In this document: piece after piece, positions 24,019-33,906 of the stretch | Layout: each line of letters begins with the position of its first letter | How positions within the stretch are numbered: the stretch's first letter is position 1 | From: an uncultured Muribaculaceae bacterium | GTDB lineage: Bacteria > Bacillota_I > Bacilli_A > RF39 > UBA660 | Reading direction: 5' to 3' | Assembly: GCA_964617705.1 (NCBI GenBank) | Contig: CAZTXU010000002.1 | Coordinates: 1 to 33,906 of the forward strand | Length of the DNA: 33,906 bases | Made by a program: the position numbers and the translations under genes | The notes under the pieces: generated by a model | What the model was told of the DNA's origin: nothing | The model's database searches: none | What the model saw: only the letters and a program-made list of their open reading frames with translations

Positions 24019-24042
24019 GTGTTAAAGTGTTAAAGTGTTAAA
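24019..24042. repeat. Three tandem copies of GTGTTAAA
   Basis: Read directly: gtgttaaa gtgttaaa gtgttaaa, followed by a degenerate gcgttga. Confidence 0.9.
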
Positions 24043-24141
24043 GCGTTGAGGCAGTTAGTCGTTGTTAAGTTAGGCGAGGATGTTTGTGATTATTTTATCA
24101 ATCAATCGAAAAAATTTTTTTTGAAAAATGAAAGAAAAGTA

Positions 24142-24171
24142 TTGACAATATTTAGACGTATACTGTATAAT
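24142..24171 (+). promoter_or_regulatory. Promoter P1, with a palindrome half-site in its spacer
   Basis: TTGACA (24142-24147), an 18-nt spacer, then TATAAT (24166-24171). The spacer contains TTTAGACGT at 24151-24159. Confidence 0.6.
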
Positions 24172-24230: not shown

Positions 24231-24773
24231 ATGAAAGCAAAAGAGATCAGAAAAGCACTTGAACAGAAATATTTATCTAACCATGCAGATTGTGGGCGTT
24301 ATGGGCGCGCGTTTGAATTACAGTGTGCAAGAACTAAAAGCCGCAAACAGAGCGTTGCAGAACAAAATGAAACAGATGTCCACGTTAAGTTCATCAGCGA
24401 AAACGGCAAGGCTTACTATGTGCCTTGTGAGGCTAAGACCAATGGCGGACGCATTGACGAGTTGTTAAACGGTTCAAAAGCTCAATATGTTATCTATGAC
24501 CTGCACTTTGTACAGAAACACAAGGCAAGCAAAAAGCGCGATGCCTATGATGAATATCGTGACCTTGAACAACCTGTTATTATTCCTAAAGCCTTATTTC
24601 TTGCTAAACTGATTGAGTTTAACGCAATTAAAGCAATCAATAGAAATGGGGAGCTTGACGGCTATGGTATTCAGGTAAGTAGTAAAAAATGGTTTGAGTG
24701 GTTGAGTGATTATCCTGTAAAGTTCGATAACGAAAATGCTTATGAGGTGTGGGAATTTGAGGGTCTTGAATAA
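24231..24773 (+). CDS. Hypothetical protein (180 aa), possible PD-(D/E)xK nuclease fold
   Basis: The ATG lies after GAAAGGAAG. The ORF-track start at 24177 coincides with the predicted transcription start. A D...E-x-K-like arrangement is present (ETDVHV ... CEAKTNGG). The fold assignment is speculative. Confidence 0.55.
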   Translation: MKAKEIRKALEQKYLSNHADCGRYGRAFELQCARTKSRKQSVAEQNETDVHVKFISENGKAYYVPCEAKTNGGRIDELLNGSKAQYVIYDLHFVQKHKASKKRDAYDEYRDLEQPVIIPKALFLAKLIEFNAIKAINRNGELDGYGIQVSSKKWFEWLSDYPVKFDNENAYEVWEFEGLE

Positions 24774-25164: not shown

Positions 25165-25185
25165 TTTAGACGTGTCACGTCTAAA
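25165..25185. repeat. Early-region palindrome copy 1 (TTTAGACGT GTC ACGTCTAAA)
   Basis: 9-bp arms, 3-nt spacer. 17 nt upstream of the -35 hexamer at 25203. Confidence 0.95.
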
Positions 25186-25202
25186 CAAAATAAAAATAGG
25201 GA

Positions 25203-25231
25203 TTGCAATTAGTGGGCAGGTGTGGTATCAT
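25203..25231 (+). promoter_or_regulatory. Promoter P2
   Basis: TTGCAA, 17 nt, TATCAT, with an upstream TG. Confidence 0.5.
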
Positions 25232-25278
25232 ATATTCAGAGATTAGGATTAGCTGATCCACAAGAAAGGAATAAAACA

Positions 25279-25536
25279 ATGATGTACGCAGAGGAAGCAA
25301 GAAAAATCGCAAAGGAAATAAACGAATACAAGGAAGCCGAAGCTAAGGCTAAGACAATGAGCTATATTGAATCTACTGTTATGCCAGCTATATCCAACGC
25401 TGCAAGCGAGGGCATATATAATACACGAGTTACTCCCTCATGCTGCGCGGATAACTTTATCCTCCGCAGAGAATTGGAGAAGCTCGGATATGAAGTATGT
25501 ATTGAGCGCAATTACATTACAATTATTTGGTCTTAA
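25279..25536 (+). CDS. Hypothetical protein (85 aa)
   Basis: The ATG lies after AGAAAGGAA. The ORF-track start at 25222 lies inside the promoter. Confidence 0.6.
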   Translation: MMYAEEARKIAKEINEYKEAEAKAKTMSYIESTVMPAISNAASEGIYNTRVTPSCCADNFILRRELEKLGYEVCIERNYITIIWS

Positions 25537-25573
25537 CACTGTGAAGTGTTTTTGATAGTTGGTTTTCATTGCT

Positions 25574-25601
25574 GGGAGGGGTCGCCCTCCCTATCCTTTT
25601 T
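25574..25601 (+). terminator. Intrinsic terminator
   Basis: GGGAGGG-gtcg-CCCTCCC followed by TATCCTTTTT. Confidence 0.65.
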
Positions 25602-25611
25602 AGGGGAAAAA

Positions 25612-25632
25612 TTTAGACGTCTTACGTCTAAA
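25612..25632. repeat. Early-region palindrome copy 2 (spacer CTT)
   Basis: 9-bp arms. 17 nt upstream of the -35 hexamer at 25650. Confidence 0.95.
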
Positions 25633-25649
25633 CAAAAATAAAATCGTTA

Positions 25650-25678
25650 TTGACTTTTTGAGAATTTTTTGGTAAAAT
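25650..25678 (+). promoter_or_regulatory. Promoter P3
   Basis: TTGACT, 17 nt, TAAAAT. Confidence 0.5.
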
Positions 25679-25708
25679 TTAATTAAAGAAAAGGAAGGAG
25701 GAACAAAA

Positions 25709-25876
25709 ATGTTCCAAAAATTTAAAGAATTTTTTAAAGATGACTATATCCGTACAAAGCGATTTCGTATTAAACCATTTAGTCTGCTTTGGTGGGTGAT
25801 TCGTGGCGGGCAAGCTATACTTGTAGTAGCTGGGTTTTTTGTATTTTATATGATGATGTGGTCAGTGTTTGCGTAA
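25709..25876 (+). CDS. Small membrane protein (55 aa), absent from the ORF track
   Basis: The ATG lies 7 nt after AAGGAAGGAGG. My hand translation is MFQKFKEFFKDDYIRTKRFRIKPFSLLWWVIRGGQAILVVAGFFVFYMMMWSVFA, with one C-terminal hydrophobic helix. Confidence 0.6.
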   Translation: MFQKFKEFFKDDYIRTKRFRIKPFSLLWWVIRGGQAILVVAGFFVFYMMMWSVFA

Positions 25877-25938
25877 GCTGAAAGTAGAAAAAATTTTATA
25901 AAAAGGAGGAAATTATTTTCTTCTTTTTTGGAATTTTA

Positions 25939-25959
25939 TTTAGACGTCTTACGTCTAAA
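25939..25959. repeat. Early-region palindrome copy 3 (spacer CTT)
   Basis: 9-bp arms (10 bp with the flanking A/T pair). 17 nt upstream of TTGATT at 25977. Confidence 0.95.
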
Positions 25960-25976
25960 TCATTTGAAAATTTCTC

Positions 25977-26005
25977 TTGATTTTTCCGGAATTTTTTGAT
26001 AGAAT
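25977..26005 (+). promoter_or_regulatory. Promoter P4
   Basis: TTGATT, 17 nt, TGaTAGAAT. An overlapping TATAAT lies at 26005-26010. Confidence 0.45.
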
Positions 26006-26060
26006 ATAATTACAGAAAGGGAACAGAGTTCCCGAACAGAGAAAGGAATTTTAGAAAAAA

Positions 26061-26504
26061 ATGAGAATTTATTTTGATATGGATGGAACACTTGCAAATC
26101 TTTATGGTATTGATAATTGGGTAGATAGACTCGAAAGCTATGACAGCTCTGTTTATGAAGAAGCTGAGCCTCTATTTAACTTCCGACAGTTCGCCCGCAT
26201 TTTGAACAAATTACAGGATAAAGGTGTATATATAGGAATTATTTCGTGGAACTCAAAGTGCGGCAATAATAAATATCATGAAGCTGTGAAGATGGCGAAA
26301 AAAAGATGGCTCGCACATCATTTGCCGTCGGTTGTATGGGATGAAATTCACATTGTAAAATATGGCTCGCCAAAGCATTTTAATTGTCAAGATAATTCTG
26401 GAATTTTATTTGATGATAATGAAGATGTGAGAAAATTGTGGGATAAAAGAGGAATGAGTTTTTCCGAAAAAGATATTATAGAAGTTCTTTCAAGACTTCT
26501 TTAA
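26061..26504 (+). CDS. HAD-superfamily phosphatase, 5'(3')-deoxyribonucleotidase-like (147 aa)
   Basis: Motif I is FDMDGTLA (DxDxT). There is a Ser/Thr motif (IISWNS), a downstream Lys, and an acidic motif (LFDDNEDV). The size fits capless or NT5C-like HAD enzymes. Confidence 0.6.
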   Translation: MRIYFDMDGTLANLYGIDNWVDRLESYDSSVYEEAEPLFNFRQFARILNKLQDKGVYIGIISWNSKCGNNKYHEAVKMAKKRWLAHHLPSVVWDEIHIVKYGSPKHFNCQDNSGILFDDNEDVRKLWDKRGMSFSEKDIIEVLSRLL

Positions 26505-26533
26505 TATAAAATTCCTTTTCTTGTGTGGGGAAG

Positions 26534-26562
26534 TCGGGACAGAAATGTCCCGATTTCTTTTT
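26534..26562 (+). terminator. Intrinsic terminator
   Basis: TCGGGAC-agaaat-GTCCCGA followed by TTTCTTTTT. Confidence 0.7.
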
Positions 26563-26571
26563 GGAATTTTA

Positions 26572-26592
26572 TTTAGACGTTTAACGTCTAAA
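26572..26592. repeat. Early-region palindrome copy 4 (spacer TTA)
   Basis: 9-bp arms. 17 nt upstream of TTGAAT at 26610. Its left flank, TTTTTGGAATTTTA, is shared with copy 3. Confidence 0.95.
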
Positions 26593-26609
26593 TTTTATTT
26601 AAGTTGGGG

Positions 26610-26638
26610 TTGAATTTTTAGAATTTATTTGATATAAT
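26610..26638 (+). promoter_or_regulatory. Promoter P5
   Basis: TTGAAT, 17 nt, TGaTATAAT. Confidence 0.55.
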
Positions 26639-26672
26639 TTAAGTACAGTAAAAGAAAAGGAGAAAAAGAAAA

Positions 26673-26849
26673 ATGATAAGAGAAGAAAGATTAAAGATAT
26701 TAGAAAAACTTGAAAAAATTAAATGTCCTATTTGTGGAATGGAGTTAGAAGATTTATTAGAATATGATACAACTTCCGAAGAATGGGAACATAATTACCG
26801 TTGCCCTAATTGTTTAATAGATATTAGTATAGAAGAAGATTGTTATTAA
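26673..26849 (+). CDS. Small zinc-ribbon protein (58 aa), absent from the ORF track
   Basis: The ATG lies after AAAGGAGAAAAAG. My hand translation is MIREERLKILEKLEKIKCPICGMELEDLLEYDTTSEEWEHNYRCPNCLIDISIEEDCY, containing CxxC-x21-CxxC. Confidence 0.55.
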   Translation: MIREERLKILEKLEKIKCPICGMELEDLLEYDTTSEEWEHNYRCPNCLIDISIEEDCY

Positions 26850-26869
26850 GAAAAGGAGAATTAAAAAAA

Positions 26870-27094
26870 ATGAAAATCAATGATAATCGTGAAAAAGTAA
26901 TGCAATCTTTTAGATCTATTCTTCGCATTGGAGAAATTTTTGAATATGCGAATAAAATTTATATGACGGTTATAGATGTCGCCGATGATGATGGTAACTG
27001 TTATAATGTAGTTTGTCTAAACGATGGAGAGTTTGCCTATTTTAATAACGAGCAAGTGCAAGTCTTGAATAATGTTGCACTTGAAATTCATTAA
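26870..27094 (+). CDS. Hypothetical protein (74 aa)
   Basis: The ATG lies after AAAAGGAGAA. The ORF-track start at 26840 overlaps the preceding gene. Confidence 0.6.
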   Translation: MKINDNREKVMQSFRSILRIGEIFEYANKIYMTVIDVADDDGNCYNVVCLNDGEFAYFNNEQVQVLNNVALEIH

Positions 27095-27113
27095 AGCGGA
27101 GAAATCCGCTTTT
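27093..27113 (+). terminator. Intrinsic terminator
   Basis: AAGCGGA-gaaa-TCCGCTT followed by TT. Confidence 0.6.
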
Positions 27114-27117
27114 CAAG

Positions 27118-27136
27118 TTAGACGTATTACGTCTAA
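27118..27136. repeat. Early-region palindrome copy 5 (8-bp arms, spacer ATT)
   Basis: TTAGACGT ATT ACGTCTAA. On the nominal 21-bp frame it lies 17 nt upstream of TTGACT at 27155. Confidence 0.9.
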
Positions 27137-27154
27137 ATTTTCTAAAAATTATTA

Positions 27155-27186
27155 TTGACTATAAAATCAAGATGTGGTATTATAAT
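27155..27186 (+). promoter_or_regulatory. Promoter P6
   Basis: TTGACT, 17 nt, TATTAT, overlapping a TATAAT. Confidence 0.5.
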
Positions 27187-27267
27187 ATTGCAAGGGGGAC
27201 AGGAACTCCCGAAAATAAAAAGGGTTGCGACCAACGCAAAGTCGAAAGACGGAAAGAAAGGTATATC

Positions 27268-27612
27268 ATGACAAACAGAGAATTTTACAACGCTATTGCT
27301 AATGGAACAATGACTGATGAAATCAAGGCTTTTGCTGAGGAGGCAATTACAAAAATGGATGAACGCAACGCAAAGCGTAATTCTAAACCCTCTAAAACTG
27401 CAATTGAGAACGAACCCATTAAAGAAAAAATTGTAGAGTTTATTACACAAAGAAACGAGTTCTGTATTGCAGGTGCTATTGCCGAGGTTCTTGAAATTTC
27501 TACCCAGAAAGCAAGTGCCCTTTGTAGGCAGTTGGTTGCCGATGGTAAGTTGGTAGAAAAAGAAGTGAAAGTTCCCAAACAGGGAAAACGTAAAGCATAT
27601 GGACTTGAATAA
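27268..27612 (+). CDS. Winged-helix-like DNA-binding protein, paralog A (114 aa)
   Basis: The ATG lies after GAAAGAAAGG; the ORF-track start at 27172 lies inside the promoter. The C-terminal half, ISTQKASALCRQLVADGKLVEKEVKVPKQGKRKAY, looks like a recognition helix plus a beta wing. It is clearly homologous to the 32516-32869 product. Confidence 0.55.
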   Translation: MTNREFYNAIANGTMTDEIKAFAEEAITKMDERNAKRNSKPSKTAIENEPIKEKIVEFITQRNEFCIAGAIAEVLEISTQKASALCRQLVADGKLVEKEVKVPKQGKRKAYGLE

Positions 27613-27616
27613 AATT

Positions 27617-27642
27617 AGAGGGATTTATCCCTCTTTTTTTTT
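27617..27642 (+). terminator. Intrinsic terminator
   Basis: AGAGGGAT-tt-ATCCCTCT followed by eight T. Confidence 0.75.
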
Positions 27643-27653
27643 AGAAAAAAACA

Positions 27654-27674
27654 TTTAGACGTTATACGTCTAAA
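27654..27674. repeat. Early-region palindrome copy 6 (spacer TAT)
   Basis: 9-bp arms. 6 nt upstream of TTGACT at 27681. Confidence 0.95.
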
Positions 27675-27680
27675 AAAAAT

Positions 27681-27709
27681 TTGACTTTTAGATAAATTTA
27701 TGTTATAAT
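27681..27709 (+). promoter_or_regulatory. Promoter P7a
   Basis: TTGACT, 17 nt, TGtTATAAT. Confidence 0.55.
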
Positions 27710-27757
27710 AGTAATAGATAAAAAGGAAAAAGAATATAAAAAGGAAATAAAAAAGTA

Positions 27758-27786
27758 TTGACAAACTAAAAATAGTGTGCTATAAT
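27758..27786 (+). promoter_or_regulatory. Promoter P7b (second tandem promoter for the same gene)
   Basis: TTGACA, 17 nt, TATAAT. Confidence 0.55.
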
Positions 27787-27818
27787 AATACTGTAATAAG
27801 GAAAGGGAGGTAGCATAT

Positions 27819-28169
27819 ATGGCAACTTCAAATAAAAAATTAAACGATGAATTGAGAAACAGGTATCTTGAAGTGTTGAAAACTATTTTTGATGAAAGTG
27901 GCGAGGAGGTTTTAATTACAGGTACAAATGAAATTTGCCTCCCTTGTGTGGATAGCGAACAAAATGATAAATTTATTCAAATTGTGGTAAAAGTTCCCAC
28001 AGGTTCGCGAGATGGTGACGCTTTTGATGGTTATAGTTTAGCAGAGGAATTTAAGATTAAACAGGAATTGAAAGCAATTAAAAAGAAAGAAGATGCAGAA
28101 AAGAAAGCAAAAAAAATTGAACGTGATAAAAAATTGCGTGAAAAGAAAGAGAAAGAAAAGGAAGAGTAA
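27819..28169 (+). CDS. Hypothetical protein with a Lys/Glu-rich C-terminal tail, paralog A (116 aa)
   Basis: It has an AAAGGGAGG RBS. It shares the motifs FDE, (I/V)VVKVP, DG..GY.L.EE and a KAKKI..DK..RE.KEKEKE tail with the 30082-30399 product. Confidence 0.65.
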   Translation: MATSNKKLNDELRNRYLEVLKTIFDESGEEVLITGTNEICLPCVDSEQNDKFIQIVVKVPTGSRDGDAFDGYSLAEEFKIKQELKAIKKKEDAEKKAKKIERDKKLREKKEKEKEE

Positions 28170-28186
28170 TCTTCCTTTTTAATATA

Positions 28187-28207
28187 TTTAGACGTAATAC
28201 GTCTAAA
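28187..28207. repeat. Early-region palindrome copy 7 (spacer AAT)
   Basis: 9-bp arms. 7 nt upstream of TTGACA at 28215. Confidence 0.95.
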
Positions 28208-28214
28208 TAAAAGA

Positions 28215-28243
28215 TTGACATCCTCCGCGCGAAGTAGTATAAT
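28215..28243 (+). promoter_or_regulatory. Promoter P8
   Basis: TTGACA, 17 nt, TATAAT. Confidence 0.6.
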
Positions 28244-28277
28244 TGTCTTAACAAAAGAAAGAAAGGAAACAAATCAA

Positions 28278-28580
28278 ATGACCACAAAATTTTTTAAGAC
28301 AACCGATAAACAGAATTTTTATACTTTGTATGTATGCGACATTGAAACTCCAATTCCTACAATGGAAGAAATTGTAGAGCGCAGAAAACTTTCTCCATAT
28401 TGTAAAACTGATACAGTGGAAGAAATTACAAGAGAAGAATTTTTAAAACTCCATAACGAACTTCTCATCGAACTTTCTGATAGCGCGGGCGACATGATTA
28501 ACTGGGCGCCAAATTATGGACTGCTTACCACTTGGGAATGGTGGGAATCAACAGAAGAAATGGAAATGTGTGAGGATTAA
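28278..28580 (+). CDS. Hypothetical acidic protein (100 aa)
   Basis: The ATG lies after AAAGAAAGGAAAC. The ORF-track start at 28215 is the TTG of the -35 box. Confidence 0.6.
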   Translation: MTTKFFKTTDKQNFYTLYVCDIETPIPTMEEIVERRKLSPYCKTDTVEEITREEFLKLHNELLIELSDSAGDMINWAPNYGLLTTWEWWESTEEMEMCED

Positions 28581-28599
28581 ATCCTCATACATTTTAAGT

Positions 28600-28620
28600 T
28601 TTAGACGTAATACGTCTAAA
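28600..28620. repeat. Early-region palindrome copy 8 (spacer AAT)
   Basis: 9-bp arms (10 bp with the flanking pair). 7 nt upstream of TTGACA at 28628. Confidence 0.95.
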
Positions 28621-28627
28621 AAACGTG

Positions 28628-28656
28628 TTGACATATCATACGTATTGTGATACAAT
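28628..28656 (+). promoter_or_regulatory. Promoter P9
   Basis: TTGACA, 17 nt, TGaTACAAT. Confidence 0.55.
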
Positions 28657-28687
28657 TGTCTTAACAAAAGAAAGGAATTTAAAAATT

Positions 28688-29152
28688 ATGTTAGTATCTT
28701 TTATCTTTTTTAATATCTTAAATGTAGTAATTCAAACAATAAAATCTATTGTAACGATTAAGTGTAATAAATGGGTTGCCGCAGTTGTAAATGCTGTTGC
28801 TTATGGGTTATATACTTATATTGTAGTATTGACCGCCAGTGATTTAGATTTATGGTTTAAGATTATCACAGTAGCACTTGCTAACTTAGTTGGTGTGTTC
28901 ATTGTAAAATGGATTGAAGAAAAGAAAAGAAAAGAGATGTTATGGAAAGTTGAATTTACAATTAAAAAAGAATTTTTAAAAAATGTTAAAACTCTTTTAA
29001 CTCTTGTAAAAGTTCCTCACAGTTATATTGAAATTGGGAAAAATGTAATTGTAAATGCGTATTGTGCGACAGGCAAAGAAAGTGAAAGCGTTAAAGAAAT
29101 TATTAAAAAGTATAATGCAAAGTATTTTGTAAGTGAAACAAAAATTTTATAA
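28688..29152 (+). CDS. Integral membrane protein, UPF0316/DUF2179-like architecture (154 aa)
   Basis: The N-terminal half has about three hydrophobic helices (LVSFIFFNILNVV..., AAVVNAVAYGLYTYIVVL, ITVALANLVGVFIV). A soluble C-terminal domain follows. The layout matches the B. subtilis YebE-type family. The ORF-track start at 28625 lies in the promoter. Confidence 0.5.
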   Translation: MLVSFIFFNILNVVIQTIKSIVTIKCNKWVAAVVNAVAYGLYTYIVVLTASDLDLWFKIITVALANLVGVFIVKWIEEKKRKEMLWKVEFTIKKEFLKNVKTLLTLVKVPHSYIEIGKNVIVNAYCATGKESESVKEIIKKYNAKYFVSETKIL

Positions 29153-29157
29153 ATTGA

Positions 29158-29186
29158 AAAGAGACTCTTAACAGGGTCTTTTTTGT
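29158..29186 (+). terminator. Intrinsic terminator
   Basis: AGACTC-ttaaca-GGGTCT (one G-U pair) followed by TTTTTT. Confidence 0.55.
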
Positions 29187-29196
29187 ACTTCCACGA

Positions 29197-29217
29197 TTTA
29201 GACGTTTTACGTCTAAA
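29197..29217. repeat. Early-region palindrome copy 9 (spacer TTT)
   Basis: 9-bp arms. 17 nt upstream of TTGCAA at 29235. Confidence 0.95.
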
Positions 29218-29234
29218 TATTTTTTATTTTACTA

Positions 29235-29263
29235 TTGCAATTCATATTTACTTGTGATATAAT
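29235..29263 (+). promoter_or_regulatory. Promoter P10
   Basis: TTGCAA, 17 nt, TGaTATAAT. Confidence 0.55.
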
Positions 29264-29306
29264 TTAGATAATCCCGAAAGGGAAAATAAGAAAGGAATTT
29301 TATAAA

Positions 29307-29972
29307 ATGAAAATCGACAACAGAAAATCTTATTATCTCACAATTGACACCGAAACCGCAAACAATCTCGACAACCCTATTGTCTTTGATATTGGCGGCG
29401 CGGTGCATGACAAAAAAGGAAAAGTGCTTGAAACATTTTCTTTTATCATTAAAGAGGTATTTTACGAAATGCCTGAGCTGATGCAAGAATGTTTTTACCT
29501 TGTCAAAATTCCGCAATACAACGCGCAAATTTACAAAGGCGAACGAAAAGTTGTTAGCCTTTACGAGGCAAAAAAGCATATTGATGAATTATGTAAAAAA
29601 TACCATATAAAAGCAATTATCGCACACAATGCCCGTTTTGACTATCGAGCGACAACCACAACACAAAGATATTTGACTTCTTCAAAATATAGATACTTCC
29701 TCCCCTATGGCGTGGAATTGTGGGATACATTGAAAATGGCACAAGATACCATTTGTAAGCAACAAAGCTATATTAACTGGTGTGTTAAACATAATTACAC
29801 AAAGAAAAACGGCGCGCCGAGGGCAACAGCGGAAATCCTATATAAATATATTACAGGTGATAATGATTTTGTTGAAAGTCACACAGGGCTTGAAGATGTG
29901 CTAATTGAAAAAAAAATTTTTGCACATTGTATGCGTCAGCATAAAAAAATGAGGAAAAATGTTTGGGAATAA
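29307..29972 (+). CDS. DEDDh (DnaQ-like) 3'-5' exonuclease (221 aa)
   Basis: Exo I is LTIDTETAN, Exo II is IIAHNARFDY and Exo III is HTGLEDV (H-x4-D). Confidence 0.7.
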   Translation: MKIDNRKSYYLTIDTETANNLDNPIVFDIGGAVHDKKGKVLETFSFIIKEVFYEMPELMQECFYLVKIPQYNAQIYKGERKVVSLYEAKKHIDELCKKYHIKAIIAHNARFDYRATTTTQRYLTSSKYRYFLPYGVELWDTLKMAQDTICKQQSYINWCVKHNYTKKNGAPRATAEILYKYITGDNDFVESHTGLEDVLIEKKIFAHCMRQHKKMRKNVWE

Positions 29973-29995
29973 TCCCAGACATTTTTCAAAACTTA

Positions 29996-30016
29996 TTTAG
30001 ACGTGATACGTCTAAA
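29996..30016. repeat. Early-region palindrome copy 10 (spacer GAT)
   Basis: 9-bp arms. 7 nt upstream of TTGACA at 30024. Confidence 0.95.
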
Positions 30017-30023
30017 TTTATTA

Positions 30024-30052
30024 TTGACATTAGTACGTAAATGTAGTAAAAT
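30024..30052 (+). promoter_or_regulatory. Promoter P11
   Basis: TTGACA, 17 nt, TAAAAT. Confidence 0.55.
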
Positions 30053-30081
30053 GATTATAGTAAAAGAAAGGGGTGTTTATT

Positions 30082-30399
30082 ATGAAGGTAGCAATGGCAA
30101 ATGCTATTCGTGAACACTATATCAAGGCAGTTTGTTCTCTCTTTGATGAAGAAGATTGTGGTATGACTACTTCCAACTCTTTCAATTTCCCTATTGTGTG
30201 GGAAGGCGAGGAGGGTTGGGTCGAGGTCATTGTAAAGGTTCCTAAGTATGATGGGGATGAGGGTTATGCACTTCGTGAAGAATACGAAATGAAGTGCAAG
30301 GAACGTGCCGAAAAGGCGAAAGCGCGAGCCGAAATCAAGGCAAAGAAGATTGCCAAAGATAAAGCGCGCAGAGAGGCAAAAGAAAAAGAAAAGGAGTAA
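30082..30399 (+). CDS. Hypothetical protein with a Lys/Glu-rich C-terminal tail, paralog B (105 aa)
   Basis: The ATG lies after AAAGGGG. It is homologous to the 27819-28169 product (see that entry). Confidence 0.65.
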   Translation: MKVAMANAIREHYIKAVCSLFDEEDCGMTTSNSFNFPIVWEGEEGWVEVIVKVPKYDGDEGYALREEYEMKCKERAEKAKARAEIKAKKIAKDKARREAKEKEKE

Positions 30400-30412
30400 T
30401 CCTTTTCTTTTT
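30388..30412 (+). terminator. Intrinsic terminator overlapping the stop codon
   Basis: GAAAAGG-agtaat-CCTTTTC followed by TTTTT. Confidence 0.6.
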
Positions 30413-30420
30413 CAAAACAG

Positions 30421-30441
30421 TTTAGACGTCTTACGTCTAAA
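30421..30441. repeat. Early-region palindrome copy 11 (spacer CTT)
   Basis: 9-bp arms. 17 nt upstream of TTGACA at 30459. Confidence 0.95.
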
Positions 30442-30458
30442 TAAATTTTAAGTTGATA

Positions 30459-30487
30459 TTGACATTTTAGTTAAGATTTGATATACT
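30459..30487 (+). promoter_or_regulatory. Promoter P12
   Basis: TTGACA, 17 nt, TATACT. Confidence 0.55.
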
Positions 30488-30534
30488 ATAATTGTTCCAA
30501 GGGGAACGAAATAAAAAAAAAGGAATTAGAAAAA

Positions 30535-30999
30535 ATGTATAATTATGTAGTATCAATTAGAGATTATAAAACAGATGAACCTATCGCACTCAAAGAGGGA
30601 GAAACAAAAAATACACCCTCTAATAGATTTAAACAAATTTGTAAAGTAGATGCAAAAAAATATTTTGATAGAGAAGTATATATTGAACTTCTTTATCTTA
30701 TTGGTGGTGATTATGAAAAAGCAACTGCCCGACTTATTGAAGATACTTTTCGTCTTTACTTTCTTAAAAAATTTGGGATTGATAAAGTTTTTAAGAGAGA
30801 TTATTTTCTTACTCATAATCTTCCGAAAGAATATGATGTTGAAAAAGAGATAGAAGATATTAAAAATTTAATCTTACCTTTTAGCGGTTCTGGGGCAAAA
30901 TTGCTTTTTACTGCGAAACCCAATTATATAAGTAATATTTATTGTGAAAATAAATCAATGGCAGTTTTCAAAACTTGGGAAAAAATGGGAATTGAATAA
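30535..30999 (+). CDS. Hypothetical protein (154 aa)
   Basis: The ATG lies after AAAGGAATTAG. The ORF-track start at 30478 lies in the promoter. Confidence 0.6.
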   Translation: MYNYVVSIRDYKTDEPIALKEGETKNTPSNRFKQICKVDAKKYFDREVYIELLYLIGGDYEKATARLIEDTFRLYFLKKFGIDKVFKRDYFLTHNLPKEYDVEKEIEDIKNLILPFSGSGAKLLFTAKPNYISNIYCENKSMAVFKTWEKMGIE

Positions 31000-31013
31000 T
31001 TCCCCTTTTTTTT
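30987..31013 (+). terminator. Intrinsic terminator overlapping the stop codon
   Basis: GGGAATT-gaat-AATTCCC followed by C and eight T. Confidence 0.65.
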
Positions 31014-31022
31014 AAAAAATAT

Positions 31023-31043
31023 TTTAGACGTTTTACGTCTAAA
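31023..31043. repeat. Early-region palindrome copy 12 (spacer TTT)
   Basis: 9-bp arms. 7 nt upstream of TTGACA at 31051. Confidence 0.95.
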
Positions 31044-31050
31044 TAATTGT

Positions 31051-31079
31051 TTGACAAATTAGTTTTAATTTGATATACT
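31051..31079 (+). promoter_or_regulatory. Promoter P13
   Basis: TTGACA, 17 nt, TATACT. Confidence 0.6.
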
Positions 31080-31127
31080 AATAATAACAAAAGAAAGAAA
31101 AATAAAAAAGATTAAAGGAGGCACAAA

Positions 31128-31307
31128 ATGATTATCAATATGAGTATTGAATACAACGAAAAAGAAAAAGAGTTGTATATTGCAGAAGAAAGTTCAAGTG
31201 GTTGTATTTATTCACACATTAAAAAAGAAGATATATCAAATTATGTAAAAAATTATATTGATGATTTTCTTTTTTATGATAAAGATGAATATGAGGAGGA
31301 AGAGTAA
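31128..31307 (+). CDS. Small acidic protein (59 aa), absent from the ORF track
   Basis: The ATG lies 7 nt after AAAGGAGG. My hand translation is MIINMSIEYNEKEKELYIAEESSSGCIYSHIKKEDISNYVKNYIDDFLFYDKDEYEEEE. Confidence 0.55.
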   Translation: MIINMSIEYNEKEKELYIAEESSSGCIYSHIKKEDISNYVKNYIDDFLFYDKDEYEEEE

Positions 31308-31424
31308 ATGATGAGTTTATATGATTTGATTGAGGGTATGTTAGAACTGCTTGGAACTATTTACTATACTGGCGCGATGACAATAGAGGAAGAAAAACTT
31401 CTTAACAAGTATGAAGAAGTATAG
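31308..31424 (+). CDS. Possible micro-protein (38 aa)
   Basis: The ATG directly abuts the upstream TAA (GAGGAGGAAGAGTAAATG provides an SD-like run). The translation is MMSLYDLIEGMLELLGTIYYTGAMTIEEEKLLNKYEEV. Confidence 0.35.
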   Translation: MMSLYDLIEGMLELLGTIYYTGAMTIEEEKLLNKYEEV

Positions 31425-31461
31425 TATAATTATTACGAAAAAGAACTTAGGAGTGAAGAAA

Positions 31462-31641
31462 ATGAGAATTGAAAAAAGAGAAATGATTTTTCTTTCACAA
31501 GAAGAAAGGGATACTTGGGATGTTTTTGACAAAATTTTAGAAGGAATTGAAGGAGAAACTAACGATCCATACATTATTGACACTATCTGTGAAATTACTG
31601 ATCATTTATCAGACTTATGGGAATTAGTGGAGGTTGAATAA
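31462..31641 (+). CDS. Small acidic protein (59 aa)
   Basis: The ATG lies after TAGGAGTGAAG. The ORF-track start at 31411 overlaps the previous ORF. Confidence 0.55.
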   Translation: MRIEKREMIFLSQEERDTWDVFDKILEGIEGETNDPYIIDTICEITDHLSDLWELVEVE

Positions 31642-31668
31642 AAGGACTTAACAAAGTCCTTTTTTTTA
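31640..31668. terminator. Bidirectional intrinsic terminator
   Basis: AAGGACTT-aaca-AAGTCCTT is flanked by an A-run on the left and TTTTTTATT on the right, so it is usable from either strand. Confidence 0.7.
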
Positions 31669-31679
31669 TTTATTTTAAT

Positions 31680-31698
31680 TTAGACGTATTACGTCTAA
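31680..31698. repeat. Early-region palindrome copy 13 (8-bp arms, spacer ATT), with no promoter beside it
   Basis: TTAGACGT ATT ACGTCTAA. No TTGACA-type box follows on either strand. Confidence 0.9.
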
Positions 31699-31922
31699 TT
31701 AAGGGATTTCTCGGAATCGAACCGATATATCTTGCGCGCAGACCATAACCATTATGTCTCCCCGAGAACTCAGAAATCAAATAGATTTTTTTCGGCGTTC
31801 CGTCTTTGTTCTCTCAGTAAAGAAATTGGCTTTGTTTTAGAGAAATTACCTTTAAGGACTTTTCCGTTTGGGTCACTCTTGGCGCCTCCTGCTCCTGCTT
31901 TGTCGTCCACCAACCTTTACTG
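31699..31922 (-). ncRNA. Candidate promoter-driven non-coding transcript ending in a tRNA-like T-arm fragment (function unknown)
   Basis: It lies downstream of a consensus minus-strand promoter. No ORF here has a well-spaced SD apart from a 17-codon micro-ORF. The 3' part reads ...TCGGTTCGATTCCGAGAAATCCC on the minus strand, a T-loop consensus. It is G+C-richer than the flanks. The boundaries are approximate. Confidence 0.3.
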
Positions 31923-31929
31923 TAGTTAT

Positions 31930-31958
31930 AGTATAACAAAATTTATATTTATTGTCAA
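31930..31958 (-). promoter_or_regulatory. Leftward promoter of the inverted cassette
   Basis: On the minus strand: TTGACA (31958-31953), 17 nt, TGtTATACT (-10 hexamer at 31935-31930). Palindrome copy 14 lies 7 nt upstream in that orientation. Confidence 0.6.
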
Positions 31959-31965
31959 CAGATGA

Positions 31966-31986
31966 TTTAGACGTATTACGTCTAAA
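31966..31986. repeat. Early-region palindrome copy 14 (spacer ATT)
   Basis: 9-bp arms (10 bp with the flanking pair). It serves the minus-strand promoter. Confidence 0.95.
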
Positions 31987-31996
31987 TTTTATTTTT

Positions 31997-32232
31997 GTCA
32001 AATTTTTTCTTTTTGTCAAATTCTACGACGTTGCCGGCGCGACGTCAAATTTTATGCGTTGTCAAATTTTAATAAACCAGCTACAAACCAGCTACACCAG
32101 CTGTCAAATTTTGAATCAGCTGCGAAATCAGCTACAAATAAAAATTTGACGTACAATCTCTTTATATTTATATTTCCCCTTTTATTTTAACACAAATTAA
32201 GCTGGATTTCAAATTATTAGAGCTGTCAAATT
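31997..32232. repeat. Iteron cluster: seven copies of (T/C)GTCAAATT plus five or six copies of CAGCT(A/G)C; candidate replication origin or protein-loading site
   Basis: GTCAAATT occurs at 31997, 32015, 32044, 32061, 32103 and 32225, with an inverted copy at 32143-32150. CAGCT cores occur at 32079, 32090, 32099, 32118 and 32130. CGACGT appears twice, flanking GCCGGC, at about 32026-32046. No credible ORF is present. Confidence 0.5.
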
Positions 32233-32264
32233 TAAAATCTACTTAAATAAAAAAACTTTAAAAT

Positions 32265-32293
32265 TTGAAAATCTTTTAAATTTTAGTTATAAT
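32265..32293 (+). promoter_or_regulatory. Twin promoter A
   Basis: TTGAAA, 17 nt, TATAAT, then ATATATAGAAAATGAGAAAGG. Near-identical to twin B. Confidence 0.5.
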
Positions 32294-32384
32294 ATATATA
32301 GAAAATGAGAAAGGGTGGTGCTAAGCTCCTTTGTGATTGTGGCACCTTAATGCACGAGTAGTTAAGGGGTCGTCGCCCTAAAAT

Positions 32385-32413
32385 TTGAAAAAAAATAAAA
32401 ATTCAGCTATAAT
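32385..32413 (+). promoter_or_regulatory. Twin promoter B (drives the 32516 gene)
   Basis: TTGAAA, 17 nt, TATAAT, then ATATATAGAAAGTGAGAAAAGG. It lies exactly 120 bp downstream of twin A. Confidence 0.55.
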
Positions 32414-32515
32414 ATATATAGAAAGTGAGAAAAGGAAAAATAAGTTCCTATTCATAAAAAACAAAACAAATCTAATTGGCGCCTACCGCCTTACAGTAGG
32501 AGAAAGAGGATTATT

Positions 32516-32869
32516 ATGACGAAGAGAGATTTCTATGTAGCAATCGCAAATGGTGAGATGAATGACGAAGTAAAGGTTGCTGCCGCAGAGTACATCGCAA
32601 AAATGGATGAGGCAAACGAGAAACGCAAGCACACTCTGTCCAAGAAACAGGAAGAGAATGAAGCAATCAAGGCAGAAATTCTGGGACACCTTGATACCGA
32701 AGCAAAAACTGCTACGACTATCGGAGAGCTGATGGGTATTTCTACGCAGAAAGCGTCGGCACTGCTTAGACAGCTTGTAAATGACGGCAAGGCTACTGCA
32801 ACCGAAGTTAAGATTCCGAAGAAGGGTACTCAGAAAGCTTATATCGTAAATTTTTCACATGAAAACTGA
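32516..32869 (+). CDS. Winged-helix-like DNA-binding protein, paralog B (117 aa)
   Basis: It has a GGAGAAAGAGG RBS. MTKRDFYVAIANGEMNDE...ISTQKASALLRQLVNDGKATATEVKIPKKGTQKAY aligns along its whole length with the 27268-27612 product. Confidence 0.6.
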   Translation: MTKRDFYVAIANGEMNDEVKVAAAEYIAKMDEANEKRKHTLSKKQEENEAIKAEILGHLDTEAKTATTIGELMGISTQKASALLRQLVNDGKATATEVKIPKKGTQKAYIVNFSHEN

Positions 32870-33757: not shown

Positions 33758-33906
33758 ACGTATACGTTTTACTTGTACGTCCTGTGTACAGTTAGATGTC
33801 CTAAACGTATACGTTTTACTTGTACGTCCTGTGTACAGTTAGATGTCCTAAACGTATACGTTTTACTTGTACGTCCTGTGTACAGTTAGATGTCCTAAAC
33901 GTATAC
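33758..33906. repeat. 47-bp tandem direct repeat, 3 full copies plus a partial copy cut by the window edge
   Basis: The unit is ACGTATACGTTTTACTTGTACGTCCTGTGTACAGTTAGATGTCCTAA, at 33758-33804, 33805-33851 and 33852-33898, with 33899-33906 starting a fourth copy. All copies are identical. Confidence 0.95.

Follow-up and report, generated by a model that had tools for sequence, protein, structure and literature searches.

A palindrome phased to the early promoters of an uncultured gut phage clade is a predicted operator, with the first early gene as its candidate reader

The window considered here, the whole 33,906-nucleotide stretch of contig CAZTXU010000002.1 (GenBank assembly GCA_964617705.1), is a fragment of the genome of an uncultured phage, and it carries 14 occurrences of the interrupted palindrome TTAGACGT-N3-ACGTCTAA, all of them between genes and confined to positions 25165-31986. 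The locus raises the question of what such an element does in the early region of a phage, and what reads it. From sequence comparison with the relatives of the window we regard the palindrome as the predicted operator of a phage-encoded, two-fold symmetric DNA-binding protein that would act on RNA polymerase, and put the probability of this reading at roughly two in three. As the palindrome stands at a fixed helical phase before nearly all early promoters, both in the window and in dozens of relatives, a phage-encoded regulator very probably binds there. The operator reading accounts for invariant arms around a free centre, for a position exclusively upstream of promoters, for a phasing that extends over five turns with a subtype-specific phase, for a half-site that covaries with the palindrome, and for the presence of different elements in the same place in close relatives. 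An earlier note on this DNA, made from the letters alone, had already suggested that a dimeric protein, kept to one helix face, uses the palindrome as its operator and that the copies define a regulon; the sites, the phasing, the free centre and the half-site seen in relatives all lend support to that prediction.

A search for the exact pattern TTAGACGTNNNACGTCTAA returned 14 matches, all within 25166-31985, against none in dinucleotide shuffles (n=100), and no further palindrome was found elsewhere in the 33.9-kb window with up to 2 mismatches allowed. A flanking T and A extend the palindrome to 21 bp, giving 9-bp arms in 12 of the 14 copies; the arms are of 8 bp in copy 5, where the first base is G, and in copy 13, where the last base is T. 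The number of copies, their arm lengths, the free 3-nt spacer, the intergenic position of every copy and the absence of the motif from the structural operon had been described by eye in the earlier note, and exact matching confirms all of these (Table 1). The heptamer TTAGACG occurs 31 times in the window against 2.3 expected, with just 2 occurrences within the structural region. Copies 1-13 are preceded, at varying distance, by the 3'-end hairpin of the upstream gene, and copies 1-12 are followed by plus-strand promoters of the TTGACA/TATAAT type; the promoters of the window match 9-12 of the 12 consensus positions, have spacers mostly of 17 bp and often show a TG extension. The original description of each copy as lying between a terminator and the next promoter holds to this extent, but not for copy 13, which shows a promoter on neither flank. 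Similarly, the gaps of 17, 7 or 6 nt to the -35 hexamer stand for copies 1-12, whereas the gap of 7 nt assigned to copy 14 belongs to a strong promoter on the minus strand; the plus-strand side of this copy offers no credible promoter (TTGTCA...CAAATT, with a score of 8/12). The wording "once per early transcription unit" proved too strong, as six promoter-like sites (23713, 24142, 27758, 31402, 32265 and 32385) lack a full palindrome, the one at 24142 having a lone half-site.

A scan of IMG/VR yielded 81 stretches from ~55 contigs (17-139 kb, 29-51% GC) with 476 exact sites, or ~490 together with the window, and ~620 near-exact ones; in total the palindrome amounts to ~700 sites in more than 55 uncultured phage contigs, with 4-26 palindromes per related contig. 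The IMG/VR contigs with the motif have both structural and early genes in common with the window. The gaps between palindrome and -35 hexamer fall into clusters of 6-9 nt (248 sites), 16-19 nt (82 sites), 26-29, 36-41 and 49-52 nt, with class centres at 7-8, 17-18, 27-28, 38-39 and 49-50 nt, that is, with a period of ~10.5 bp over five turns. A Rayleigh test on the gaps of at least 12 nt (n=164) gave R=0.74-0.77 at 10.5-11 bp (p ~1e-40), and most of the sites initially scored as promoter-less have weaker promoters of the form TTGCAA...TAATAT at a gap of ~8 nt. For a spacer of 17 bp and transcription starting 7 nt past the -10 hexamer, the dyad centres lie near -53/-54, -63/-64, -74, -84 and -95. 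Two independent contigs from other databases, found via protein, show gaps only of 7, 17 and 27 nt. A symmetric variant, TTAGACGA-N3-TCGTCTAA, is found in ten related contigs (L230-L239), where the gaps of 11, 22 and 31-32 nt show an equal period with the phase shifted by 3-4 bp, these contigs being closely related and thus amounting to few independent observations. The earlier note had recognized gaps quantised by one helical turn, with the dyad near -63 or -53; the relatives extend this rule to five turns, and the phasing is real and general.

The first early promoter reads TTGACA-ATAT-TTAGACG-TATACTG-TATAAT. In about 18 other phages with the motif a single promoter likewise carries a lone TTAGACG or CGTCTAA shortly past the -35 hexamer, and in motif phages the promoter with the half-site is always the first early one, adjoining the homologue of a 438-aa gene. 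The TTAGACGA subtype instead has a lone CGTCTAA 7 nt upstream of the -35 hexamer; over both placements, lone half-sites at the first early promoter were seen in about 20 phages. Contig 3300045988_133431, to which loci L209 and L225 belong, repeats the palindrome TTAGATGT-N3-ACATCTAA, and its first promoter, TTGACATCTAAT, contains the matching variant half-site CATCTAA. In the first promoters of relatives lacking the motif, half-sites of their own elements were not evident. As a half-site cannot form a hairpin, and as it covaries with the palindrome, it argues for a protein reader.

Table 1. Copies of the palindrome and associated features in the window
Feature	Position	Strand	Central triplet	Promoter	Promoter position	Gap to -35 (nt)	Remarks
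First early promoter	24142..24171	+		TTGACA-18-TATAAT			lone half-site TTAGACG (24152-24158) in spacer
First early gene	24231..24773	+					180 aa; fast-evolving family; E29..D49..E67-x-K69..Q148 (PD-(D/E)xK-like)
Copy 1	25165..25185		GTC	TTGCAA-17-TATCAT	25203-25231	17	
Copy 2	25612..25632		CTT	TTGACT-17-TAAAAT	25650-25678	17	
Copy 3	25939..25959		CTT	TTGATT-17-TAGAAT	25977-26005	17	
Copy 4	26572..26592		TTA	TTGAAT-17-TATAAT	26610-26638	17	
Copy 5	27117..27137		ATT	TTGACT-17-TATTAT	27155-27183	17	8-bp arms
Copy 6	27654..27674		TAT	TTGACT-17-TATAAT	27681-27709	6	
Copy 7	28187..28207		AAT	TTGACA-17-TATAAT	28215-28243	7	
Copy 8	28600..28620		AAT	TTGACA-17-TACAAT	28628-28656	7	
Copy 9	29197..29217		TTT	TTGCAA-17-TATAAT	29235-29263	17	
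Copy 10	29996..30016		GAT	TTGACA-17-TAAAAT	30024-30052	7	
Copy 11	30421..30441		CTT	TTGACA-17-TATACT	30459-30487	17	
Copy 12	31023..31043		TTT	TTGACA-17-TATACT	31051-31079	7	
Copy 13	31679..31699		ATT				8-bp arms; no promoter; left flank of minus-strand cassette
Minus-strand cassette	31700..31965	-			31958..31930		267 bp; 46-47-aa open reading frame (31913..31770); tRNA-like T-arm (GGTTCGATTCC)
Copy 14	31966..31986		ATT	TTGACA-17-TATACT (minus strand)	31958..31930	7	TTGTCAAATTT iterons on other side

A position matrix of 420 promoter-oriented sites gives ~2 bits at each of the seven outer arm bases (TTAGACG/CGTCTAA). Of these sites, 95% have a T at the distal member of the inner arm pair and 83% an A at its promoter-proximal member; the central 3 bp vary freely yet are AT-rich. 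The mismatch spectrum is steep, with 480/124/9/9 sites for 0/1/2/3 mismatches. The palindrome is absent from 50,697 GenBank phage records, and a literature search for the sequence or an equivalent element returned nothing relevant, consistent with the earlier note, whose author knew of no described phage regulatory element with this sequence. In a single-species genome collection, the multi-copy hits with AT-rich free spacers are, among the matches listed, all on short phage-like contigs from ruminant or gut bins. The bacterial genome contigs of that scan (L082-L201) were rich in hits from Patescibacteria (the Candidate Phyla Radiation, CPR), including Giovannonibacteria, Nealsonbacteria, Wolfebacteria and Saccharibacteria. 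Many of these genomes each have a 19-mer in several copies, the full palindrome TTAGACGTC-S-GACGTCTAA with a CGG/CCG centre, which lies inside or between genes, frequently has extra complementary flanks and looks like a separate repeat family; a host factor of Patescibacteria was set aside as a candidate since the CPR hits are this different repeat.

The backbone of the window is nearest to loci without the motif, L202-L204 (91% at the nucleotide level, 94% for the 438-aa protein and 96% for the winged-helix protein), and differs from them in the first gene and the intergenic elements. L202-L204 have ~14 early promoters, none with the palindrome, and in a collinear alignment copy 6 is replaced in them by GAGTTAGTcattGCTAACT-GGCGCCGGGCG-GTTAGTgtatGCTAACT at an identical distance from the same promoter. 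Upstream elements in further relatives include GTTAGTT-N2-AACTAAC, TTGTTAA-N4-TTAACAA, AATATAT-N-ATATATT, CCCGGGCG boxes, TGTGA..ACA boxes and UP-like A-tracts, the relatives with such alternative elements being L202-L204, L206, L208-L212 and L218. L202 encodes an AbrB-like protein that is not encoded in the window. The cultured Enterococcus phage H1 (L224, OP534061, 91.5-102.7 kb) is distantly related and shares the early layout of one gene to one promoter, and no repeated palindrome was found in it. In many intergenic regions of H1 the -35 hexamer itself forms the loop of the hairpin that terminates the upstream gene (e.g. AAAGGGG-TTGACA-ACCCCTTT).

Two winged-helix paralogs encoded in the window (27268-27612 and 32516-32869) had been named in the earlier note as candidate binders. 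This suggestion was not sustained: as a specificity factor they are rejected, because homologues 95-96% identical to them are present in the palindrome-free L202-L204, and winged-helix homologues occur in 16 of 16 loci without the motif, at up to 96% identity. All of the widely conserved early proteins are in fact common to loci with and without the motif, and clustering of the open reading frames (ORFs) of both sets in search of other motif-specific early genes gave only the family of the first early gene and antisense artefacts. Searches with a hidden Markov model detected this first-gene family in 34 of 47 motif contigs, in every examined motif locus that spans the junction, and in the TTAGATGT phage, but in none of 16 non-motif contigs, of which 6 span the junction; in those six the first gene is a different small one, with an E..GD..[QS][VI]K signature. 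Retrieval via the first-gene protein alone recovered 21 contigs, and all 21 contain palindromes. Homology of the window to the L202 group, at 91% of nucleotides, stops at 24150, at the -35 hexamer of the first promoter. As the backbone up to that point is closest to a group without the motif, the link between palindrome and first gene is not a simple clade effect.

The first-gene protein has 311 metagenomic homologues, no domain in Pfam and no homologue in GenBank phages. Its subfamilies are 16-38% identical to each other, with G22, G25, D49 and K69 invariant and E29, E/D67, Y89, F123, L127 and Q148 nearly so. The E..D..(E/D)xK pattern is typical of PD-(D/E)xK nucleases and offers a lead to the function of the family. 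A confident AlphaFold model (pLDDT 93.6) gave weak, sub-threshold fold hits to influenza PA endonuclease, EcoRV, RecE, MvaI and a phage "PD-(D/E)XK nuclease" (E>0.1 for EcoRV, MvaI and RecE), and the Pfam entry PDDEXK_9 reached E=0.057; across Pfam, PHROGs, PDB sequences and PDB/BFVD folds the searches for a function returned sub-threshold nuclease hints only. As the fold match is not significant, the nuclease fold is a lead and not a result. Co-occurrence with the palindrome, together with the autoregulation-like half-site, makes the first-gene product the predicted reader, at odds that we place a little short of even; they are held there by the great divergence of the family and by its retention of catalytic-type residues.

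If the palindrome is an operator, each TTAGACG(T) arm would be read by one subunit, with the arm centres about one helical turn apart and the 3-bp AT-rich centre uncontacted. The dimer would bind upstream of host sigma-70-type early promoters on one face of the helix, at the shortest spacing occupying the place where relatives have UP-like A-tracts, and might act on RNA polymerase most plausibly via the alpha C-terminal domains. A bound protein that over-stabilises or blocks polymerase, like phi29 p4 at early promoters, could bring about early shut-off, and the gene behind the half-site promoter would then be negatively autoregulated. We lean slightly towards repression over activation, on account of the near-consensus promoters and of the half-site inside or next to the first core promoter; activation of a delayed-early class is possible. 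Beyond this, the dispersed identical repeats fall at the boundaries of single-gene cassettes and probably act as recombination junctions too. Of the class-I-like placement suggested in the earlier note, the symmetric site upstream of the -35 hexamer on one helix face stands, whereas the core promoters are strong and not weak. A fuller scheme is possible but doubtful, in which a nuclease-signature protein, the first to be made after infection, would control the early regulon via the phased palindromes and its own half-site, the sites would double as cassette junctions, and the types would be exchangeable. It is no less tentative that such "specificity types" (TTAGACGT, TTAGACGA, TTAGATGT, GTTAGT... 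and others) might swap in near-identical backbones in the manner of lambdoid immunity groups.

Several points weigh against the operator reading and its assigned reader. Near-consensus promoters need no activator. Many of the sites come from related contigs and are therefore not fully independent, those of the TTAGACGA subtype especially. The divergence among first-gene subfamilies contrasts with a 16-bp site that is identical throughout, which is unusual for a sequence-specific reader, and the fold search of the first-gene model in PDB and BFVD found no significant match. The catalytic-type signature that the family has kept would fit an active nuclease better than a protein that only regulates. 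Finally, the loci cover only fragments of the ~110-kb relatives, and the binder could be another linked gene that lies outside them.

A different function for the first-gene product is central to one alternative, which we consider unlikely: the palindromes might be cleavage or nicking sites of a PD-(D/E)xK endonuclease, whose breaks would drive recombination and let co-infecting phages swap cassettes of one gene, as with restriction enzymes that have interrupted palindromes or with PD-(D/E)xK homing endonucleases, regulation being secondary. The palindrome strictly co-occurs with a family that keeps E..D..(E/D)xK..Q, and the sub-threshold similarities to PDDEXK_9, EcoRV, MvaI, RecE and the phage nuclease point the same way. 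The homology blocks between the window and its relatives would also fit, as their ends fall at palindromes or promoters (24150, 26593, 27118, 28182/28220, 28600 and 31964). So would the minus-strand cassette, which is flanked by copies 13 and 14, both with the triplet ATT, and which is missing in the goat-colon relative L135, where a single palindrome takes its place. Over all loci, neighbouring sites share the central triplet in 131 cases against 117 +/- 6 in shuffles (p ~0.02). This excess is small, and a cut-and-paste mechanism via central-triplet overhangs was rejected because the sharing is just slightly above chance. The endonuclease would leave unexplained both the half-site within the first promoter and the five turns of 10.5-bp phasing to the -35 hexamer; an enzyme that cut its own genome at 14-25 sites would destroy it unless regulated or limited to nicking, sites are not avoided, with 14-26 intact ones per genome, and the fold assignment is non-significant. 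The minus-strand unit itself folds no better than shuffles (z=-0.7), and ARAGORN and Rfam found no tRNA or known RNA family in or near it or the palindromes.

That the reader is instead a host transcription factor, whose operator is exploited by the phages as Spo0A is by phi29, with the palindrome types reflecting the hosts, seems less likely again. An identical motif across phages of 29-51% GC and very different gene content would be expected on this account, as would early regions in which no classical DNA-binding protein was found to be both conserved and restricted to motif phages, and single copies do lie beside genes in scattered bacterial genomes, including one conserved Paenarthrobacter site. 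Yet relatives as close as 91% in structural nucleotides and 96% in the winged-helix protein are without the motif, the strict link to one phage gene family is left unexplained, and the multi-copy hits with AT-rich spacers are, among the matches listed, confined to phage-like contigs; further, we know of no match to consensus operators such as those of CodY, CcpA, Spo0A, LexA, Rex or the Fur family. The palindrome could, lastly, act as a nucleic-acid structure, a hairpin or cruciform that would work as a back-up bidirectional terminator, as a supercoil insulator separating transcription units or as an N4-type hairpin promoter, and this we hold to be very improbable. A 9-bp stem with a 3-nt loop folds as RNA at about -8 kcal/mol, several copies were flagged by a terminator scan, the site lies between terminators and promoters, and where variant lineages differ at arm positions 6 and 8, both arms change together and so compensate for each other. 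A structure does not, however, require 14 invariant bases over ~700 sites in diverged phages; there is no consistent T-run after the palindrome in the 420 oriented sites, only 3 of the 9 pairs in the AT-rich stem are G-C, almost all copies already have a separate GC-rich terminator upstream, and Rfam gave no match. Nor does a structure explain the phasing to the -35 hexamer or a lone half-site that cannot fold and is nonetheless conserved in the first promoter. The 3-nt-loop hairpin would fit an N4-like hairpin promoter, but this candidate was rejected since the 2832-aa ORF of the window is a tape measure and not a virion RNA polymerase.

Among known systems, the stoperators of mycobacteriophage L5 and its kin are asymmetric 13-bp sites, oriented with transcription and lying within transcribed DNA, which block elongation. 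Their tens of dispersed intergenic copies are read by a single phage protein, and unlike the present element they are neither palindromic nor promoter-phased. Class I sites of CRP are centred at -61.5, -71.5 and so on, whereas the dyads here lie near -53.5 + 10.5n. With CRP class I sites and with those of phi29 p4 the palindrome has in common a dyad-symmetric dimer site upstream of the -35 hexamer, at which only integral-turn positions are used; it differs from class I in promoters that are near-consensus and do not appear activator-dependent. The early protein p4 binds inverted repeats, repressing strong early promoters and activating a weak late one, at a few sites of the form CTTTTT-N15-AAAATG where p6 is required (PMC3100819); here 14-25 near-identical sites extend over the whole early region. 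The PeSL elements of T4-like phages share with the present loci the dense arrays of single ORFans, in which every gene comes with a strong sigma-70-like promoter, upstream AT-rich DNA and a stem-loop, and the location of the repeats at boundaries of insertion, deletion and replacement between close relatives. Their stem-loops function as GC-rich terminators that vary in both sequence and position (PMC2839356, PMC4122927), whereas here a separate GC-rich terminator is followed by an invariant palindrome with an AT-rich centre, phased to the -35 hexamer.

The nearest concept is that of SPBRE and MrpR in SPbeta. SPBRE is a 15-bp element at about ten promoters, tied to lysogeny maintenance and bound by the master repressor MrpR (YopR), which uses a tyrosine-recombinase fold as a repressor (PMC10516654). 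As far as the parts of that description used here go, the two systems are alike in a short conserved element repeated at many phage promoters, with a single phage-encoded reader (here predicted); the SPbeta reader has the fold of a DNA enzyme, and the candidate here has a nuclease-like signature with the catalytic residues kept. The relatives of the window carry the structural domains YonG_N and YonD_N, which makes the family distantly SPbeta-like. The sequence, the symmetry, the phasing and the candidate reader nevertheless differ: the present element is a 19-21-bp interrupted palindrome in an apparently lytic early region, its phasing to the -35 hexamer has no counterpart in the same parts of the SPBRE description (PMC10516654), and none of the GenBank phage records searched has it. 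The window, which is part of the genome, contains 20 early ORFs, and none of them was seen to encode a protein of integrase type or resembling MrpR.

The minus strand of 1-23625 encodes structural genes. These include the tape measure ORF, which matches PhageMin_Tail and PG_binding_1 and thus combines a tape measure protein with a peptidoglycan-binding domain, and a terminase with ~45% identity to its counterparts in large siphoviruses of Gram-positive hosts. From 23.7 kb onwards about 20 small genes follow on the plus strand, each with its own promoter and terminator, most of which received no family assignment in domain and family searches. The recognizable products are a 5'-deoxyribonucleotidase-like HAD protein, the two winged-helix paralogs, an HNH endonuclease, and a 221-aa protein whose homologue in Enterococcus phage H1 is annotated as an exodeoxyribonuclease (phrog_20187). 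Two paralogous small proteins (27819-28169 and 30082-30399), with a ~75-aa N-terminal domain and a long K/E-rich tail, are kept in motif and non-motif relatives alike and possibly bind nucleic acids. No GenBank phage is close to the window in DNA; its nearest relatives are contigs of 58-114 kb, from gut and rumen and likewise uncultured.

Several other repeats lie in the early region. Upstream of the first early promoter, at 24019-24047, there is an array of 3.6 copies of GTGTTAAA, and TTAAAG-type arrays are found in the same place in motif and non-motif relatives (L202, L203, L209 and L219). Between copy 14 and the second winged-helix gene, five TTGTCAAATTT iterons and AACCAGCTAC repeats occupy 31987-32240, a region that is likely a replication origin; a palindrome adjoins such iterons in at least nine related loci (L002, L010, L012, L031, L038, L041, L052, L073 and L135). 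At 32228-32420 there are two similar units ~120 nt apart, each with a TTGAAA-17-TATAAT promoter (32265 and 32385) and a conserved leader (..ATATATATAGAAARTGAGAAA..); small RNAs, or leaders duplicated ahead of the second winged-helix gene, are possible readings. At 33758-33906 a perfect tandem repeat with a 47-bp unit (3.2 copies) runs past the end of the window, in a region that is 89% conserved in L203.

If the operator reading is correct, the palindrome would define the early-gene control circuit of a large clade of uncultured gut and rumen phages of ~110 kb, distantly SPbeta-like. One invariant operator would then serve 14-26 promoters per genome under unusually clean face-of-helix rules over five turns, and these phages would provide a natural test bed for the positional rules of bacterial transcription factors. 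The first-gene family, unannotated and without a structural relative, would represent a regulator of a new class or else a site-specific nuclease whose target is 16 bp, and either might be useful as a tool. The swapping of the upstream-element set together with the first early gene between close relatives would point to modular specificity types and to a route for the shuffling of cassettes in these phages.

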